Shown here piece after piece: positions 4,404-42,273 of a DNA stretch of 64,000 bases. The translations under genes were made by a program, and so were the position numbers. The stretch spans positions 10,277-74,276 of the forward strand of contig JAKBBP010000009.1 of assembly GCA_021808445.1 (NCBI GenBank), written 5' to 3'. This stretch comes from Pseudomonadota bacterium. Lineage in GTDB: Bacteria; Pseudomonadota; Gammaproteobacteria; Burkholderiales; Burkholderiaceae_C. Each line of letters starts with the position of its first letter. Within the stretch, counting starts at the first letter, position 1. The notes under the pieces were generated by a model that was not told where the DNA came from, did not search any database, and saw only the letters and a program-made list of their open reading frames with translations.

Positions 4404-5357
4404 ATGGAGTTCTTCCGTATCCGCCGCGACATCCCGTTCATGCGCTATGCGCCGGTGCTGAACGTGATCTCGGCCCTGCTGTTCGTCGCCGCCGTGTTCT
4501 TCCTGTTCACGCGCGGATTGCATCTATCCATCGAATTCACCGGCGGGACGGTCATGGAGGTGCATTACCCCCACGCGGCCGACCTGGATACGGTGCGCGC
4601 GGTGCCCAGGCGCCTGGGCTACGGCGACGTGCAGGTACAGACCTTCGGCAACGCTCGCGACGTGGTGATCCGACTGCCACTGCGGGCCGGCGAGAGCAGC
4701 GTGGCGCAAAGCGACCGCGTGATGAGCGCCTTGAAGTCGGCCGATCCCCAGGCGCAGCTGGCACGCACCGAGTTCGTGGGGCCGCAGGTAGGTTCCGAGC
4801 TGGCCACCGACGGCCTCAAGGCCCTGGCCTTCGTGATCGCCGGCATCATGCTGTACCTGGCGCTGCGCTTCGAGTGGAAGTTTTCCGTGGCGGCCATCGT
4901 GGCCAACCTGCACGACGTGATCATCGTGCTGGGCTTCTTCGCCTTTTTCCAGTGGGAGTTCTCGCTGCCCGTGCTGGCGGCCGTGCTGGCGGTGCTGGGC
5001 TACTCGGTGAACGAGTCGGTGGTGATCTTCGACCGGGTGCGGGAGAACTTCCGAAAGTACCGCAAGTACACCACGGTGCACGTGATCGACAGCGCGATCA
5101 CCAACACCATCAGCCGCACCATCATCACCCACGGCGCGACCCTGGCGATGGCCTTCTCGATGTTCCTGTTCGGAGGCCCCGCCCTGCATTATTTCGCGCT
5201 GGCGCTGATCATCGGCATCTCCATGAGCATCTACAGCTCCGTGTTCGTCGCCGCCGCGATCGCCATGTGGCTGCGCGTCAAGCGCGAGGATCTGCTCAAG
5301 TCCGGCCCGGGGCGCCCGAAAAACCCCAACGACCCGAACGCCGGCGCGGTGGTCTGA
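4404..5357 (+). CDS. secF: Protein translocase subunit SecF
   Basis: LSIEFTGGT, VGPQVGSEL, GYSVNESVVIFDRVRE; AGGAG RBS before ATG 4404. Confidence 0.97.
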   Translation: MEFFRIRRDIPFMRYAPVLNVISALLFVAAVFFLFTRGLHLSIEFTGGTVMEVHYPHAADLDTVRAVPRRLGYGDVQVQTFGNARDVVIRLPLRAGESSVAQSDRVMSALKSADPQAQLARTEFVGPQVGSELATDGLKALAFVIAGIMLYLALRFEWKFSVAAIVANLHDVIIVLGFFAFFQWEFSLPVLAAVLAVLGYSVNESVVIFDRVRENFRKYRKYTTVHVIDSAITNTISRTIITHGATLAMAFSMFLFGGPALHYFALALIIGISMSIYSSVFVAAAIAMWLRVKREDLLKSGPGRPKNPNDPNAGAVV

Positions 5358-27996: not shown

Positions 27997-30363
27997 TCAG
28001 AATTCAGTGGGGTCGACGTCGATCGCCCAACGCACGCCGCCCCGCAGTGCGTGCAAGGCCTCGCGCCAGCGCGCCAGGAAGGCGTGCAGCACCGCGCGGC
28101 GCGGGGCCTCCACGAGCAGTTGCAGGCGGTGGACACCCGCCAGCCGGGCCAGGCTGGCAGGCACCGGGGGATACACCGTGGGCGTGGGCGATCCCTCGGC
28201 TGCGAGCTCCGCAGCCAGCGCGGCCGCCTGCTCCGCGAACTCCTGCACGCGCTGCTCGCGCGCATGCTCGGCGCGCAGCAGGGCCTGGAAACTGAAGGGC
28301 GGCATTGCGGCACGCTTGCGTTCCAGCAGTTCGCGTTGCGCGAACCCCGCGTAGTCGTCCCGCTGCAGCGCCTGATACAGGGGATGCTCCGGATAGGCCG
28401 TCTGCACCAGCATCTCCGGCGCCAGCGTGGAGCCGGCTGCGCGCCCGGCGCGCCCGGCCGCCTGGACGAGTTGCGCGAACAGGCGCTCGGGCGCCCGCGG
28501 ATCGTGGCTGAACAGGCCGGCATCGGGGTTGAGCGCTGCAACCAGGCTGACGCGCTGGAAGTCATGGCCCTTGGTCACCATCTGGGTGCCCACCAGAATG
28601 TCCACTTCGCCGGCATGGACCTGCGCGAAGCCTGCTTCCGCCTGGCCCTTGCGCGAGGCGGTGTCGGCGTCGATGCGTGCGATGCGAGCCTGCGGGAACA
28701 GCGCCGCCAGCGCCTCCTGCACGCGCTGGGTCCCGCGGCCCAGGGGTTGCAGATCGAGACTGCCGCAATCGGGACAGGCGCGCGGCACGGCTTCGCGGTG
28801 TCCGCAGTGATGGCAGCGCAGGCTGCGGTCATTGCGGTGGTAGACCAGATGTGCATCGCAATGCGGGCAGTCGGACTTCCACCCGCAGTCGGGGCAGCAC
28901 ATCACCGGGGCGTAGCCGCGGCGGTTGAGAAACAGCAGGCTCTGCTCGCCCTGCTGCAGGCGCTGCGTGATGGCCTCGAACAGGATCTGCCCGATCGGCC
29001 CGCCGGCGCGCAGAAGAGGGTCATGGTGGCTGGGCAGCAGGCGTACGCGGGGCAGCACGCCGCTGGCGCGCTGCTGCATGCGCAACAGGCCGTAGCGCCC
29101 CTGGGCCGCGGCGTGCCAGGACTCCAGCGAAGGCGTGGCCGATCCCAGCAGCACGGGCACCCCGCTCTGGCGCGCACGCCAGACCGCGAGGTCGCGCGCG
29201 GAATACCGAGCCCCCTCCTGCTGCTTGTAGGAGGGGTCGTGCTCCTCGTCGACCACCACCAGCGCCAGTCCCGGCAGACTGGCCAGCACCGCCAGGCGGG
29301 TGCCCAGGACGATGCGGGCGCGCCCGTGGTGGGCGGCGGCCCAGTGGTCGAAGCGCTCGGCCTCGGCCAGGCCGCTGTGCAACAGGGCCAGACGCTCGCC
29401 GGGGAAGCGCTCGGCGAAGCGCCGCAGCAACTGGGGGGTCAGGTTGATTTCCGGCGTGAGGACCAGGGCCTGGGCGCGGGGGTCGCGCTCGAGCACGCGC
29501 TGCACCGCGCGCAGGTAGACCTCGGTCTTGCCGCTCCCCGTCACCCCGAACAGCAGCTGCGCGCCGAAACCCTGCTGCTGCGCCAGCACGCGCAGGGCCT
29601 GCTCCTGCTCGGCGTGCAGGCTGAGGGCCGCGCCGGCGGACTCGGCCGGGGAGGCCTGGGGGAGCCGTTCGACCAGCCAGCCCTTCAGCGCCCATTCGCG
29701 CAGCAAGGTCGCGCCGCGTGGATGCAGGCGACGCGCCCCGGCCTCGTCGAGCATGCGCACCCCAGGCTCTGGGCTCTCGGACTGCGCTTGCCCCTCGGCA
29801 CTGCCGGGAGCCTGCCCGGGCGATGGCCCCACCTCGCCCCTCGGCGCGGGCAGCCCCAGCGCCTCGGCCAGGCGCCACAGCGCCGTGCTGCGCCGGCCCA
29901 GGCTGCGCGGCAACTGCTCCCGGCCCGCGGTGCTCAGCGCATAGCGCAGGCCCGCCCGGCTCGCGGCCTGCAGTCGGCGCTGCACGGCCTGGGCACCCTG
30001 TTCGCGCAACCAGCCTGGCAGCGCCGCGGCCATCAGTTCACCCAGCGGGCGCTGGTAGTAATCGGCGGCAAAACGCAGGAGCTCCCGCCAGTCCGCACCG
30101 AGCGGGGCCAGCGCATCGCAGGCCTCCCGCACGAGCTTCAAGCCGGCGGCATCTCCGGCGGCCAGGGGCTGCGCCTGAAGCACGATGCCGCAGACCAGCT
30201 GGCGCCCCAGGGGCACGCGGACCACGGTGCCGGGTGCGAGTTCGCGTTCCGACGCATAGTCCAGCGCGCCCCAGATCGGGGCATCGACCGCGACCTGCAC
30301 GCGCCAGGCGGCGGCCCCCTGCGGCGACTCCGGGAGAAGCCCCGCCGCCTGCGGGTTTACCAC
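27997..30363 (-). CDS. priA: Primosomal protein N' (replication restart helicase)
   Basis: GVTGSGKT, DEEHD, SATPS, Zn-binding CxxC pairs, GTQMVTKG, WAIDVDP; start uncertain (GTG 30363). Confidence 0.95.
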   Translation of the reverse strand: MVNPQAAGLLPESPQGAAAWRVQVAVDAPIWGALDYASERELAPGTVVRVPLGRQLVCGIVLQAQPLAAGDAAGLKLVREACDALAPLGADWRELLRFAADYYQRPLGELMAAALPGWLREQGAQAVQRRLQAASRAGLRYALSTAGREQLPRSLGRRSTALWRLAEALGLPAPRGEVGPSPGQAPGSAEGQAQSESPEPGVRMLDEAGARRLHPRGATLLREWALKGWLVERLPQASPAESAGAALSLHAEQEQALRVLAQQQGFGAQLLFGVTGSGKTEVYLRAVQRVLERDPRAQALVLTPEINLTPQLLRRFAERFPGERLALLHSGLAEAERFDHWAAAHHGRARIVLGTRLAVLASLPGLALVVVDEEHDPSYKQQEGARYSARDLAVWRARQSGVPVLLGSATPSLESWHAAAQGRYGLLRMQQRASGVLPRVRLLPSHHDPLLRAGGPIGQILFEAITQRLQQGEQSLLFLNRRGYAPVMCCPDCGWKSDCPHCDAHLVYHRNDRSLRCHHCGHREAVPRACPDCGSLDLQPLGRGTQRVQEALAALFPQARIARIDADTASRKGQAEAGFAQVHAGEVDILVGTQMVTKGHDFQRVSLVAALNPDAGLFSHDPRAPERLFAQLVQAAGRAGRAAGSTLAPEMLVQTAYPEHPLYQALQRDDYAGFAQRELLERKRAAMPPFSFQALLRAEHAREQRVQEFAEQAAALAAELAAEGSPTPTVYPPVPASLARLAGVHRLQLLVEAPRRAVLHAFLARWREALHALRGGVRWAIDVDPTEF

Positions 30364-30463
30364 GAGGAGCGCCCCGCTCCGACGGCCCCATGTGAGTGGC
30401 GACTCGCCTTGCAGGAGGCTTCGCAGCGTGCGGGCCCTGCGAAGATCAGGGGAATCCCCAATC

Positions 30464-30651
30464 TGTGGATAACTTTGTGCATAGAGCGAAGTCTGATCAT
30501 GTCGAGATCTGTGGATAACCGCAGGCACACATCATGTCGCTCCGCACAAATGAAGGAAAAATCCTTCTTGATCAATAAGTTGAATGACCCATCCTGAAGT
30601 AAGGTCTGGAATCTGGCGTCTATGTCCTAAAAACGGGCACGGTGTGTATAA
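30464..30651. promoter_or_regulatory. DnaA-box cluster with IHF-like site
   Basis: TGTGGATAA at 30464 and 30510, TGTGTATAA at 30643, near-match TGTGCATAG at 30476, ATCAAtaagTTG at 30571. Confidence 0.7.
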
Positions 30652-30715
30652 ATCGGTGCCTCAGGCTTGACAACAGGGCCAATTTGGGTCGCTACCGTCG
30701 CCTTCGCGCGTCGAT

Positions 30716-31813
30716 TCACGCTCCGGCCCGGTGCAGGCCGCGACTGTGCGAGTGCACGGTCTCCACGAGCACGCCCACATGCTCGGGCGGGGTGAACTGC
30801 GAAATGCCGTGCCCGAGGTTGAACACATGCCCGGCCGATTCGCCCGACGCGATCGGGCCGAAACTGTCCAGGACCGCGCGCACCTCGCGTTCGATGCGCT
30901 GCGGCGGCGCGAACAAGACCGCCGGGTCCAGATTGCCCTGCAGCGCCACGCGCTGGCCCACCAGCTCACGCGCCCGGGCCAGGTTGACGGTCCAGTCCAC
31001 CCCCAGCGCATCCGCGCCCGACTCGCTCATCTCCCGCAGCCAGGCTCCTCCCCCCTTGGTGAACAGGATCGCGGGGACACGGCTTCCCTCGTGCTCACGC
31101 CGCAGGGCGGCCAGCACCTGCCGGCTGTACTGCAACGAGAATTCCTGGAACGCGCCGTCCGCCAGGGCACCCCCCCAGGAATCGAACACCATCACGGCCT
31201 GCGCGCCGGCCTCGATCTGGGCGTTCAGATAGGCGGCCACCGCCTGCGCATTGATCCGCAGGATGTGGTGCATCAGGTCCGGGCGGGAGTACATCAGGGT
31301 CTTGGTCTGGCGCCAGTCGTCGCTGCCCTGGCCCTCCACCATGTAGCAGGCCAGGGTCCACGGGCTGCCGGCAAAGCCGATCAGGGGGACTCGCTGCACG
31401 CCGTCGCTCGTGAGTGCGCGGCGAATCTGCGCAACGGCGTCGAACACATAACGCAGGCGCTCGAGATCAGGCACCTGCAGGGCCCGGATCTGGGCCTCGG
31501 TGCGCAGCGCATGTTCGAAGCGCGGGCCTTCGCCGGCGGCGAAGCGCAGCCCAAGTCCCATCGCGTCGGGCACGGTGAGAATGTCGGAGAACAGGATCGC
31601 CGCATCCAGGCCCCAGCGCTCCAGGGGCTGCAGGGTCACCTCGGTGGCCAGCTCCGGGCTGGTGGCCAGCCCCAGGAAACTGCCGGCGCGAGAGCGTGTG
31701 GCGTTGTATTCGGGCAGGTAGCGCCCGGCCTGGCGCATCAACCATACAGGGGTGAATTCGGTGGGCTGGCGCAGCAGCGCCCGCAGGAAGGTGTCGTTCG
31801 CGATCGAGCTCAT
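30716..31813 (-). CDS. hemE: Uroporphyrinogen decarboxylase
   Basis: [32 protein letters not shown]. Confidence 0.97.
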
Positions 31814-31858
31814 GGGGGTATTGTCGCAAAGCCCGCGTCTGGCGCGACCGCGACACTT

Positions 31859-39926: not shown

Positions 39927-41045
39927 TCAATCCGCGCCCGCGCCAAGCCCTTCCCCGGTCAGTAGACGGAAGAGTGGCTCGTTGATGTAGTAATTCGACC
40001 GTCCGATCTTGTGCTTGCGCACGAACCCGCCGGCCACGAGTTGGTCGAGATAGCTGGTCGCGGTGAGGCGGCTGACTCCGAGTTCGTGCTGGATGAATTC
40101 GATCTTCGTATAGGGGTGCGAGAACAGGTTGTTGATCAGGTCCTGGCTGTAGAAACGATACGCATCACGGATGCGGTGCTTGTAGTCCATCACCAGGGCG
40201 CGGATCGCCTTCACAGTCTCGATGGTTTCCATGGCCGTCTGCTCGACCGCCCGCAGCATGTACAGAACCCAGTCTTCCCACAGATCGTCGTCGCGCACCC
40301 CCTGCAGCAGGCGGTAGTAGTCGCCCTTGTTCCGCACGATGGCGCGGCTGAGGTACAGGACCGGGATGTCGAGCAGTCCCTGGCGCACGAGGTAGAGAAC
40401 GTTGATGATGCGGCCGGTGCGGCCGTTGCCGTCGTAGAAGGGGTGGATGGTTTCGAACTGGTGGTGGATCAACGCCATCTTGACCAACGGATCGGCCGGG
40501 TACATCGCGTCGTCGTTGATGAAGCGCTCGAGGTCGCCCATCAGCGCAGGCAGATGCTCCGGCGAAGGCGGCGTATAGACGACCCGACCCGCACCATCCT
40601 GCAAAGCCGTCCCGGTCATCTGGCGCAACCCCGCTCGGTTGCGCTCGAGTGCCTCCTGGATCTGCAGGATGTGGGCCAGGGTCAACAGCCCCCGCTGGCG
40701 TACCGCGTCGAAGCCGACGCGCAGCGCCTGGGCATAGCGCGAGACCTCCTTCGCTGCCTGTCCACCGCCTGCGCCGAAGTGTGCGACTTCGCGAAAGAGT
40801 TCGTCATGGGTCGTGACGATGTTCTCGACTTCGGAACTGTCCTTGGCCTCCTGCAGCACGAGCGTGTTGATCAGGATGCCCTGATTGGGCATGGACATGG
40901 CCACGCCCTTGAGTTCGGCCAATTGGCGATGCGAAGCGACCAGCTGCTTCAGGATCGCGGCAGTCTCGAATCGGGCCGGATCAAGGCCTTGCAACGGCAC
41001 CGGAAGACATGGCATGGAAGCAGGCGTAGGAGCTGCGATGTGCAT
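39927..41045 (-). CDS. Fic family AMPylase with C-terminal HTH
   Basis: HPFYDGNGRTGR; inhibitory motif SSEVEN; C-terminal VSRLTATSYLDQL. Confidence 0.92.
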   Translation of the reverse strand: MHIAAPTPASMPCLPVPLQGLDPARFETAAILKQLVASHRQLAELKGVAMSMPNQGILINTLVLQEAKDSSEVENIVTTHDELFREVAHFGAGGGQAAKEVSRYAQALRVGFDAVRQRGLLTLAHILQIQEALERNRAGLRQMTGTALQDGAGRVVYTPPSPEHLPALMGDLERFINDDAMYPADPLVKMALIHHQFETIHPFYDGNGRTGRIINVLYLVRQGLLDIPVLYLSRAIVRNKGDYYRLLQGVRDDDLWEDWVLYMLRAVEQTAMETIETVKAIRALVMDYKHRIRDAYRFYSQDLINNLFSHPYTKIEFIQHELGVSRLTATSYLDQLVAGGFVRKHKIGRSNYYINEPLFRLLTGEGLGAGAD

Positions 41046-41230
41046 AGAAAACGTGGATTCTTATACACAATCGGGCGATCTGTATAGCACTCGCCTCTTG
41101 TCCATGCAGGTCTCCCGCCGATGCGCTCGACTCTCTCCGACGGCCCACCGCGGCGACGTCTGCGAGGCGTCAGCCGCGATCCACGCGACACCAAATGGAA
41201 AATCGCACCTCTTCTTCCGCTAAAATTGAG

Positions 41231-41313
41231 TCAACTTCGCTAATTTTTCATTCACTTCGCGATGTCGACTGCTATAGTCTCGCCGTCTTCGCTATAGTCT
41301 CATTCACTTCGCG
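41231..41313. repeat. Degenerate AT-rich short repeats
   Basis: CTTCGC at 41235, 41255, 41287, 41307; GCTATAGTCTC x2; CATTCACTTCGCG x2. Confidence 0.7.
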
Positions 41314-41322
41314 TCGGTGACA

Positions 41323-42273
41323 TCAGACCCCGGCTTCGCGCGCCTGAGCATCGGCGTGGTAGCTGGAGCGCACCATCGGGCCGACCGCGGCGTGGCTGAA
41401 CCCCAGGGACTGGGCCTCGCGCTCCAGCGCGGCGAAACCGTCCGGATCCACGTAGCGCAGCACCGGCAGGTGGTGGTTGCTGGGCGCCAGGTACTGGCCG
41501 ACGGTGAGCATGTCCACCTGATGCTCGCGCAAGTCGCGCATGACCTGCACGATCTCCTCGTCGGTCTCGCCCAGGCCGACCATCAATCCGCTCTTGGTGG
41601 GTACCTGGGGGTGGGCCTGCTTGAACTGCTGCAGCAGCTTGAGCGAATGCGCGTAGTCGGCGCCGGGACGGGCCTGGCGATACAGGCGCGGCACGGTCTC
41701 GAGGTTGTGGTTCATCACGTCGGGCGGCGCGGCGTCGAAGACCTCGAGCGCACGTTCCAGGCGCCCGCGGAAGTCCGGCACCAGGACCTCGATCTGCGTG
41801 GCCGGCGAGCGCTCGCGGATGGCGCGGATGCAGTCCACGAAATGCTGCGCGCCGCCGTCCCGCAGGTCATCCCGGTCCACGCTGGTGACCACCACGTAGC
41901 GCAGGCGAAGGCGCGCGATGGTGTCGGCCAGGCGCTGCGGCTCCTGGGCATCCAGCGGATCGGGACGGCCATGACCGACGTCGCAGAAGGGGCAGCGCCG
42001 GGTGCACTTGTCCCCCATGATCATGAAGGTGGCCGTGCCATGGCCGAAGCATTCGCCGATGTTCGGGCAGCTGGCCTCCTCGCACACCGTGACCAGCGAC
42101 TGCTCGCGAAGAATGCCCTTGATCTCGTTGAAGCGCGACGAGGCCGGCGGCGCCTTCACACGGATCCACTGCGGCTTCTTGAGCGCGGGCGTGTCGGAGA
42201 CGACCTTGATGGGAATGCGCGCGGTCTTGGATTCGCCTTTCTGCTTCTGGCGCGGATCGATGGCTTGGCTCAT
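41323..42273 (-). CDS. lipA: Lipoyl synthase
   Basis: [12 protein letters not shown] and [14 protein letters not shown]. Confidence 0.97.

Follow-up and report, generated by a model that had tools for sequence, protein, structure and literature searches.

A conserved DnaA-box and IHF-site module of putative datA/DARS class upstream of priA in a Thiomonas-like member of the Burkholderiales

Chromosomal sites other than the origin can switch the initiator DnaA off, as datA does through IHF-dependent hydrolysis of the ATP bound to it, or on, as DARS1 and DARS2 do by promoting the release of ADP. Nearly all that has been established about them comes from E. coli, where box I is essential for DARS and Gln208 of DnaA is needed for DARS action. 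In the MG1655 record DARS1 consists of TTATCCACT, 5 bp, TGTGGATAA, 3 bp and TGTGTATTA, and DARS2 of TTATCCCAG, 5 bp, TGTGGATAA, 3 bp and GGTGTAAGA; they lie upstream of uvrB and mutH. At both sites box I is opposed to boxes II and III, from which a 5-bp space separates it, the spacing being the same at DARS1 and DARS2 (PMC6868365, PMC5742627). Conservation of the DARS2 core has been reported only among gamma-proteobacteria related to E. coli (Kasho 2014, PMC4245941). The datA site is non-origin and non-coding, and its boxes, a co-oriented tandem pair 3 bp apart (box 7 and box 2) and a single box 3, flank one IHF site (PMC10380432). Published analyses of Burkholderia cenocepacia (c1) and Cupriavidus metallidurans (CHR1) place two or more DnaA-box clusters near the origin and leave the true origin uncertain (PMC4948915 and its S1 Fig; PMC2864759). 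For Burkholderia and the betaproteobacteria at large, our literature search found no account of DARS or datA, nor of DnaA boxes in front of priA.

Here we compare with these systems the spacer between hemE and priA in a Burkholderiales draft genome. Comparative analysis firmly supports viewing this spacer as a conserved, putative non-origin assembly site for DnaA and IHF. Our preferred reading, to which we assign a probability of roughly 55%, is that it carries a conserved non-origin DnaA-IHF module of the datA/DARS class, placed ~100 bp in front of priA, which may also influence priA expression. A preliminary description of the same DNA had offered either a datA/DARS-like site or DnaA control of priA; the comparative evidence supports this pair of candidates.

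DnaA and IHF sites in the hemE-priA spacer

The window, the whole stretch of 64,000 nucleotides that was analysed, corresponds to C35:10277-74276 of a 3.38-Mb, 115-contig draft of 69% G+C. Its hemE is 92-95% identical to that of Thiomonas sp. FB-6 and related metagenome bins, and on this basis we regard the organism as a Thiomonas-like member of the Burkholderiales. On the minus strand lie hemE, encoding uroporphyrinogen decarboxylase (30716-31816; Pfam URO-D, 1e-128, and translation), and priA, encoding the replication-restart helicase (27997 to ~30363; Pfam PriA_3primeBD, DEAD, Zn_ribbon_PriA and PriA_C, and translation), whose start is provisionally a GTG at 30363. The 350-bp spacer between them is thereby downstream of hemE, the stop codon of which adjoins the module, and upstream of priA.

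Going towards priA, one meets in turn a GTCAAG motif, a distal DnaA box, an AT-rich tract with an IHF core, an extra consensus box, box III, 3 bp, box II and a palindrome, with the priA start ~100 bp further on. Box II, named after its place in the family-wide core, is a consensus box TTATCCACA (30464-30472, minus strand; pattern TTATNCACA) lying inside an exact 13-mer repeat, ATCTGTGGATAAC. Box III is a one-mismatch box, CTATGCACA (plus-strand letters TGTGCATAG; 30476-30484, minus), 3 bp from box II and co-oriented with it. A further consensus box TTATCCACA (30510-30518, minus) stands 46 bp from box II, and the distal box TTATACACA (30643-30651, minus) 179 bp from it, both again co-oriented. 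The three exact boxes, at 30464, 30510 and 30643, are all on the minus strand, the direction of priA and hemE, and the preliminary description was right both about them and about a near-match 3 nt after the first. The IHF-like site that it had noted within an AT-rich patch is also present (gATCAAtaagTTG, 30570-30582, unstranded); it contains ATCAAtaagTTG at 30571-30582, a core match (ATCAAnnnnTTG) to the IHF consensus WATCAANNNNTTR, lies 110 bp upstream of box II and has G at the W position (30570). The GTCAAG motif (30666-30671, minus), invariant among relatives, is found just past the distal box, and in Burkholderia-type loci forms part of a palindrome, GTCAAGaCTTGAC. A different palindrome, GGGGAATCCCC (30449-30459, unstranded), occupies the place that the inverted DnaA box I takes in other lineages; it is conserved only among the closest relatives and reads, with its flanks, AGATTGGGGATTCCCCTGATCT on the minus strand.

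These boxes are far from a random sample of the genome. Four TTATNCACA sites occur in the window as against 0.11 expected, a count reached by 0 of 100 shuffles, and the whole 3.38-Mb assembly holds only 10, three of which fall within 188 bp of the spacer. Simple arithmetic from these counts puts the chance of such a trio at ~1e-6, and the spacer is the sole cluster of perfect boxes in the assembly. The module also occupies a patch of ~250 bp, directly upstream of priA, that is 45-46% G+C, whereas the genome stands at 69% and 150-bp windows below 45% make up 0.016% of it. That the motifs cluster here by chance and have no function is a reading to which we attach practically no weight, given the shuffles and the preservation of boxes and spacing to the base pair across an order; the one point in its favour is the ordinary count of GATC. 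All four GATC sites of the preliminary description were located by pattern search (30444, 30495, 30506 and 30570), and they carry no weight, the tetranucleotide being common genome-wide. Its density is 5.8 per kb, and four copies within 135 bp occur at 571 places, 11 of them on the contig that holds the window. No Dam-type (D12-class) methylase (PF02086) was found in the assembly, and on this ground and that of the ordinary GATC frequency we reject GATC/Dam-type control.

A structured RNA was likewise considered and is disfavoured. The spacer has a fold z-score of -2.7, owed mostly to the GGGGAATCCCC hairpin, which is the strongest predicted in the priA leader, and no Rfam family scores above threshold in the spacer (twister-sister reaches 21.7 bits against a cutoff of 34); the conserved columns look more like those of a protein site than like paired ones. 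Aligning ten genus-level relatives shows invariance chiefly at the boxes, at the TTG of the IHF site and at GTCAAG, a pattern that fits protein-binding DNA, not structured RNA.

The proteins that would occupy such sites are encoded in the genome. Local DnaA, in its domain IV, is identical to that of E. coli at the box-contact residues R399, P423, D433, H434, T435 and H439, and R285 and L290 are identical as well. IHF alpha, IHF beta and HU are encoded, along with a Fis homologue of 42% identity; DARS2 in E. coli has Fis sites.

Conservation and linkage to priA

Conservation was surveyed in 80 hemE-anchored Burkholderiales loci from Thiomonas, Burkholderia, Paraburkholderia, Caballeronia, Trinickia, Cupriavidus, Massilia, Duganella, Hydrogenophaga, Roseateles, Rubrivivax and others. 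Nearly all of them have consensus boxes immediately beyond hemE and in no other part of the 9 kb. With the proximal pair as its anchor, a scan recovers the module in 71 of the 80, with a common layout in which the distal box lies 177-199 bp upstream and is followed by the weaker box, 3 bp and the consensus box; 42 of the 71 have the full IHF consensus 109-111 bp upstream of that consensus box. Box II is found in essentially every locus that bears a module. Box III is nearly invariant within the alignment of the clade, and the extra box at 30510 is confined to the present genus-level clade, in which the 133 + 46 bp box spacing recurs in the near-complete same-genus genomes G141 and G149.

The search was then widened to PriA itself, with a single genome from each of 120 families in the class, and the best 29 loci were taken. 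Among these best other-family loci hemE is adjacent to priA in none (0/29), and the module stands upstream of priA, in the same orientation, in 20. On the evidence of these alignments and scans, the linkage of the module is to priA, not hemE. The preliminary description had named a lack of conservation, together with a lack of DnaA or IHF binding, as what would refute its proposal, and both surveys found the module conserved (71/80 hemE-anchored loci and 20/29 best other-family loci).

Such fixity of position and orientation in front of priA, retained though the upstream neighbour varies, is also what would be seen if the module were purely cis-regulatory, with DnaA, helped by IHF looping, as a transcription factor that fixes how much of the restart helicase is made, and no effect on the DnaA cycle. 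We treat a purely transcriptional priA element as the main rival to a datA/DARS-class module, and as an unlikely but serious one. Strict linkage to priA across distant families is the expectation for a plain cis element, the other local DnaA-box sites also precede genes of DNA metabolism (dnaA, parE and xseA), and the same holds for DARS1 and DARS2 in front of uvrB and mutH. Against this, a simple sigma-70 scan finds no sigma-70-like promoter in the hemE-priA spacer and a terminator scan of the spacer finds no terminator-like hairpin after hemE; with neither in place, priA may be read through from hemE. Moreover, a 180-190 bp architecture, together with an exact DARS-type triple box in other families, exceeds known DnaA-repressed promoters in complexity. 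The two roles are compatible, and our preferred reading of a datA/DARS-class module allows for both.

Position relative to replication origins

The left half of E. coli oriC (R1, IBS, R5M/I-sites) shares with the module its co-oriented boxes, an IHF site between a high-affinity box and further boxes, and an AT-rich tract. In favour of the idea that the module is the chromosomal oriC of the genus are the AT-rich tract and IHF-like site, the status of the module as the only cluster of perfect boxes in the assembly and in two near-complete same-genus genomes, and the fact that no other candidate was found in the assembly. The module nonetheless differs from E. coli oriC in that it has no duplex-unwinding 13-mers, lies off the skew switch, is duplicated in the genome and is tied to priA. 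No repeated AT-rich 13-mers stand beside the boxes, the only repeat being the 13-mer that contains a DnaA box itself, and two copies of the module per genome in the genus also speak against an origin. The gene map agrees with the preliminary description, which had argued against oriC from flanking genes that mostly converge on the locus and from the absence of dnaA in the window; dnaA is on another contig beside rpmH, and the rpmH-dnaA spacer has one DnaA box.

Nucleotide skew points the same way. As a measure we used a strand-balanced skew, the mean of the values for genes on the plus and on the minus strand, which at contig scale accords with raw skew and with the KOPS motif GGGNAGGG. The balanced skew is -0.014 to -0.030 over contig 20-80 kb where computable, on both sides of the module (40.8 kb), a weak signal, as skew generally is in this genus, from a contig of 92 kb. 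A skew inversion would, by the preliminary description, have turned the locus into oriC; the skew is instead negative on both flanks. G141, a same-genus genome with a circular chromosome of 4.64 Mb, has dnaA at 405 kb and the module 276 kb from it, at 681.6 kb; its balanced skew is already positive from ~520 kb, with no V-shaped minimum at the module. In G149, also of this genus, 48 kb separate the module from dnaA.

More distant relatives place the homologous module clearly off the skew switch in three instances, which carries the earlier argument against oriC further. In Duganella the cumulative and strand-balanced skew minimum coincides with at least 5 consensus boxes at 4.4176 Mb, and the module is 160 kb away at 4.257 Mb. 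In the complete genome of Roseateles noduli, skew and KOPS remain positive for hundreds of kb either side of the module (5.4506 Mb), and the skew switch falls at ~4.93-4.98 Mb, beside other boxes and ~470-520 kb from the module. The Caballeronia skew minimum, at 840-880 kb, is beside boxes at 870 kb, and the module is ~45 kb away at 915 kb. We therefore regard an oriC at the module as very improbable. This exclusion draws on the relatives and on weak skew along one 92-kb contig, since the draft's own oriC was not located: a search through low-GC windows, contig-internal polarity switches, synteny on the Duganella glmS/asnC side and the Roseateles queE side, and the TTGTCCACA...CTACTA signature described below found none, and the oriC of the present genome may lie in an assembly gap.

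The signature in question is shared by sites at the skew minima of Roseateles (G001:C1 4,983,080-4,983,180 and 4,985,165-4,985,250) and Caballeronia (G003:C1 870,503-870,570), and consists of TTGTCCACA, 10-20 nt, CTACTAA or CTACTAC and an AT-rich run. It is a plausible candidate for an origin unwinding region, and the present assembly has no counterpart of it. A separate observation in Duganella concerns five TTATCCACA boxes in one orientation within 700 bp (G002:C1 6,251,591-6,252,281), far from the predicted origin at 4.4176 Mb.

Over shorter distances the polarity markers require caution. Across the whole assembly KOPS is antisense to genes in 70% of cases (239 vs 104), so its orientation mirrors gene direction over tens of kb, and only at contig scale can it be relied on to mark replication. 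At window 40-43 kb, where a fourth box stands at 41061, polarity seems to switch; this candidate was rejected, the place being the upstream region of a Fic gene with no box cluster; the flip of raw skew and KOPS sign there follows from all genes at 42-56 kb being on the minus strand. The gene is a lower-GC, SoFic-like member of the Fic/DOC family (372 aa, minus strand; window 39927-41340), inserted beside lipA and lipB, and its upstream spacer has a lone TTATACACA at 41061 and 20-27-nt direct repeats at 41215-41313.

Two sets of published origins bear on the locus by position. The hemE-adjacent origin of Caulobacter and Rickettsia is an alphaproteobacterial oriC from which hemE is transcribed away. 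Adjacency to hemE is its only likeness to the module, which lies at the end of hemE, is tied to priA, and in other families has parted from hemE. Three perfect boxes within 213 nt, at about 3,837,500, have been described beside a skew transition in C. metallidurans CH34 (PMC2864759), a region that would count in favour of an origin at the module if the two loci were the same. The papers on B. cenocepacia and C. metallidurans clusters do not name the hemE-priA spacer, and the module may be one of those clusters. It may likewise account for competing DnaA-box clusters that come from origin-prediction programs and appear in Burkholderia and Cupriavidus genome papers.

Relation to datA and DARS, and a second module

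In its local make-up the module is closer to datA, judging from the arrangement of its boxes. Like datA it is a putative non-origin, non-coding site with a co-oriented tandem pair 3 bp apart and a single box on opposite sides of one site for IHF, here an IHF-like one, and its span of 179 bp compares with 174 bp (PMC10380432). With respect to box direction, however, tandem pair and single box have exchanged sides, and the extra consensus box is present only in the window's module. The surroundings differ too, datA being downstream of tRNA genes and the module in front of priA.

Its wider family has the build of a DARS core. Of the 20 priA modules from other families, 15 show the exact geometry of DARS1 and DARS2 (box I inverted and 5 bp from box II, with box III 3 bp beyond), which Duganella also has twice; one example reads TTATCCACA-aaacc-TGTGGATAA-ctt-TGTGGAAca. 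A strict scan for this geometry recovered DARS1 as a control and, in 1.6 Mb of relatives' DNA, only the priA locus. The family further resembles DARS2 in having an IHF site about 100 bp from the core, and DARS sites in general in lying upstream of a DNA-repair or DNA-replication gene. In the window, by contrast, the opposed box pair that defines DARS is missing: no inverted box I stands at the 5-bp position, where 7 of 8 scored bases mismatch, and box I is likewise unrecognisable in Burkholderia-type loci. The window's clade has lost the inverted box I and gained an extra co-oriented consensus box, and this loss and gain leave four co-oriented boxes around the IHF-like site.

The local DnaA also departs from that of E. 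coli. Where E. coli has Gln208 the local protein has Ser, and Arg227 is replaced by His. Residue 208 shows no covariation with box I across 36 genomes, being mostly Ala or Gly even where box I is perfect, and an E. coli-style head-to-head DnaA mechanism is not supported by these sequences. The loss of box I and the Ser at 208 together argue against an E. coli-style DARS mechanism in the present genome.

Under our preferred reading of a datA/DARS-class module, DnaA would occupy the high-affinity boxes and IHF would bend the intervening DNA, so that DnaA on the distal box could meet the oligomer on the proximal boxes, as proposed for boxes 2 and 3 of datA. The looped complex would titrate DnaA or alter its nucleotide state and, because the module is located in the priA leader or promoter region, could make the transcription of priA depend on its occupancy by DnaA. 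In its ancestral form, where an inverted box I stands 5 bp from box II, the module has the build of a DARS core and might have served reactivation. With box I lost in the present clade, hydrolysis or titration in the manner of datA, or a role in regulation alone, seems likelier here than ADP release of the DARS type.

The exact DARS core in many betaproteobacterial families, the conserved IHF site and distal box, and the lineage-specific loss of box I would together make the module a testable handle on how general the recharging and discharging of DnaA by chromosomal DNA may be, and on how such sites evolve. Its linkage to priA also prompts one to ask whether initiator status and replication restart are coupled.

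DnaA boxes occur at two further places of interest in the draft. A cluster directly upstream of parE (C50 (L197), contig coordinates ~84542-84632) comprises TGTGGATAA, TGTGGACAA and a convergent pair 5 bp apart, TTATCCCCA-tcgga-TGGGGATAG; this box region is incomplete because, 250 bp further, the contig runs out in a tandem repeat of GCATCCGAGTTCC. The other place holds a second complete DnaA/IHF module, between xseA and exbB-exbD-lpxK (C92 (L196), 4879-5078), with a distal box cTGTCCACA, a perfect IHF consensus CAAGTAGTTGATT and the core TTACCCACA-ttg-TTATCCACA-gattt-TCGGGATAA. At C92:5044 this is the only full I-5-II-3-III core in the present genome.

The presence of that core, alongside a priA copy in which box I is beyond recognition, admits two further readings. 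In one, the priA module would be a decaying relic, an ancestral DARS-like element minus box I that is inactive on DnaA, with the xseA-exbB copy doing the work. Although box I is unrecognisable here and in Burkholderia-type loci, and the only full core is the one kept with xseA, we consider this improbable: the clade shows no variation in the boxes that are left, in their spacing or in the IHF site, and a new consensus box was gained and then kept, which indicates selection, not decay. In the other, lineages would have switched the module between a DARS type (with box I) and a datA type (box I lost, co-oriented boxes gained), so that it would be a betaproteobacterial counterpart of the E. coli DnaA-cycle sites, the xseA-exbB copy playing the part of the DARS in this genus and the priA copy that of datA; we offer this as a doubtful, though somewhat less remote, extension of the datA/DARS-class reading. 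The xseA-exbB module itself, whose neighbour xseA encodes the exonuclease VII large subunit, is kept in 25 of 25 genomes of the genus, and in G141 the two modules lie 1.8 Mb apart on the circular chromosome.
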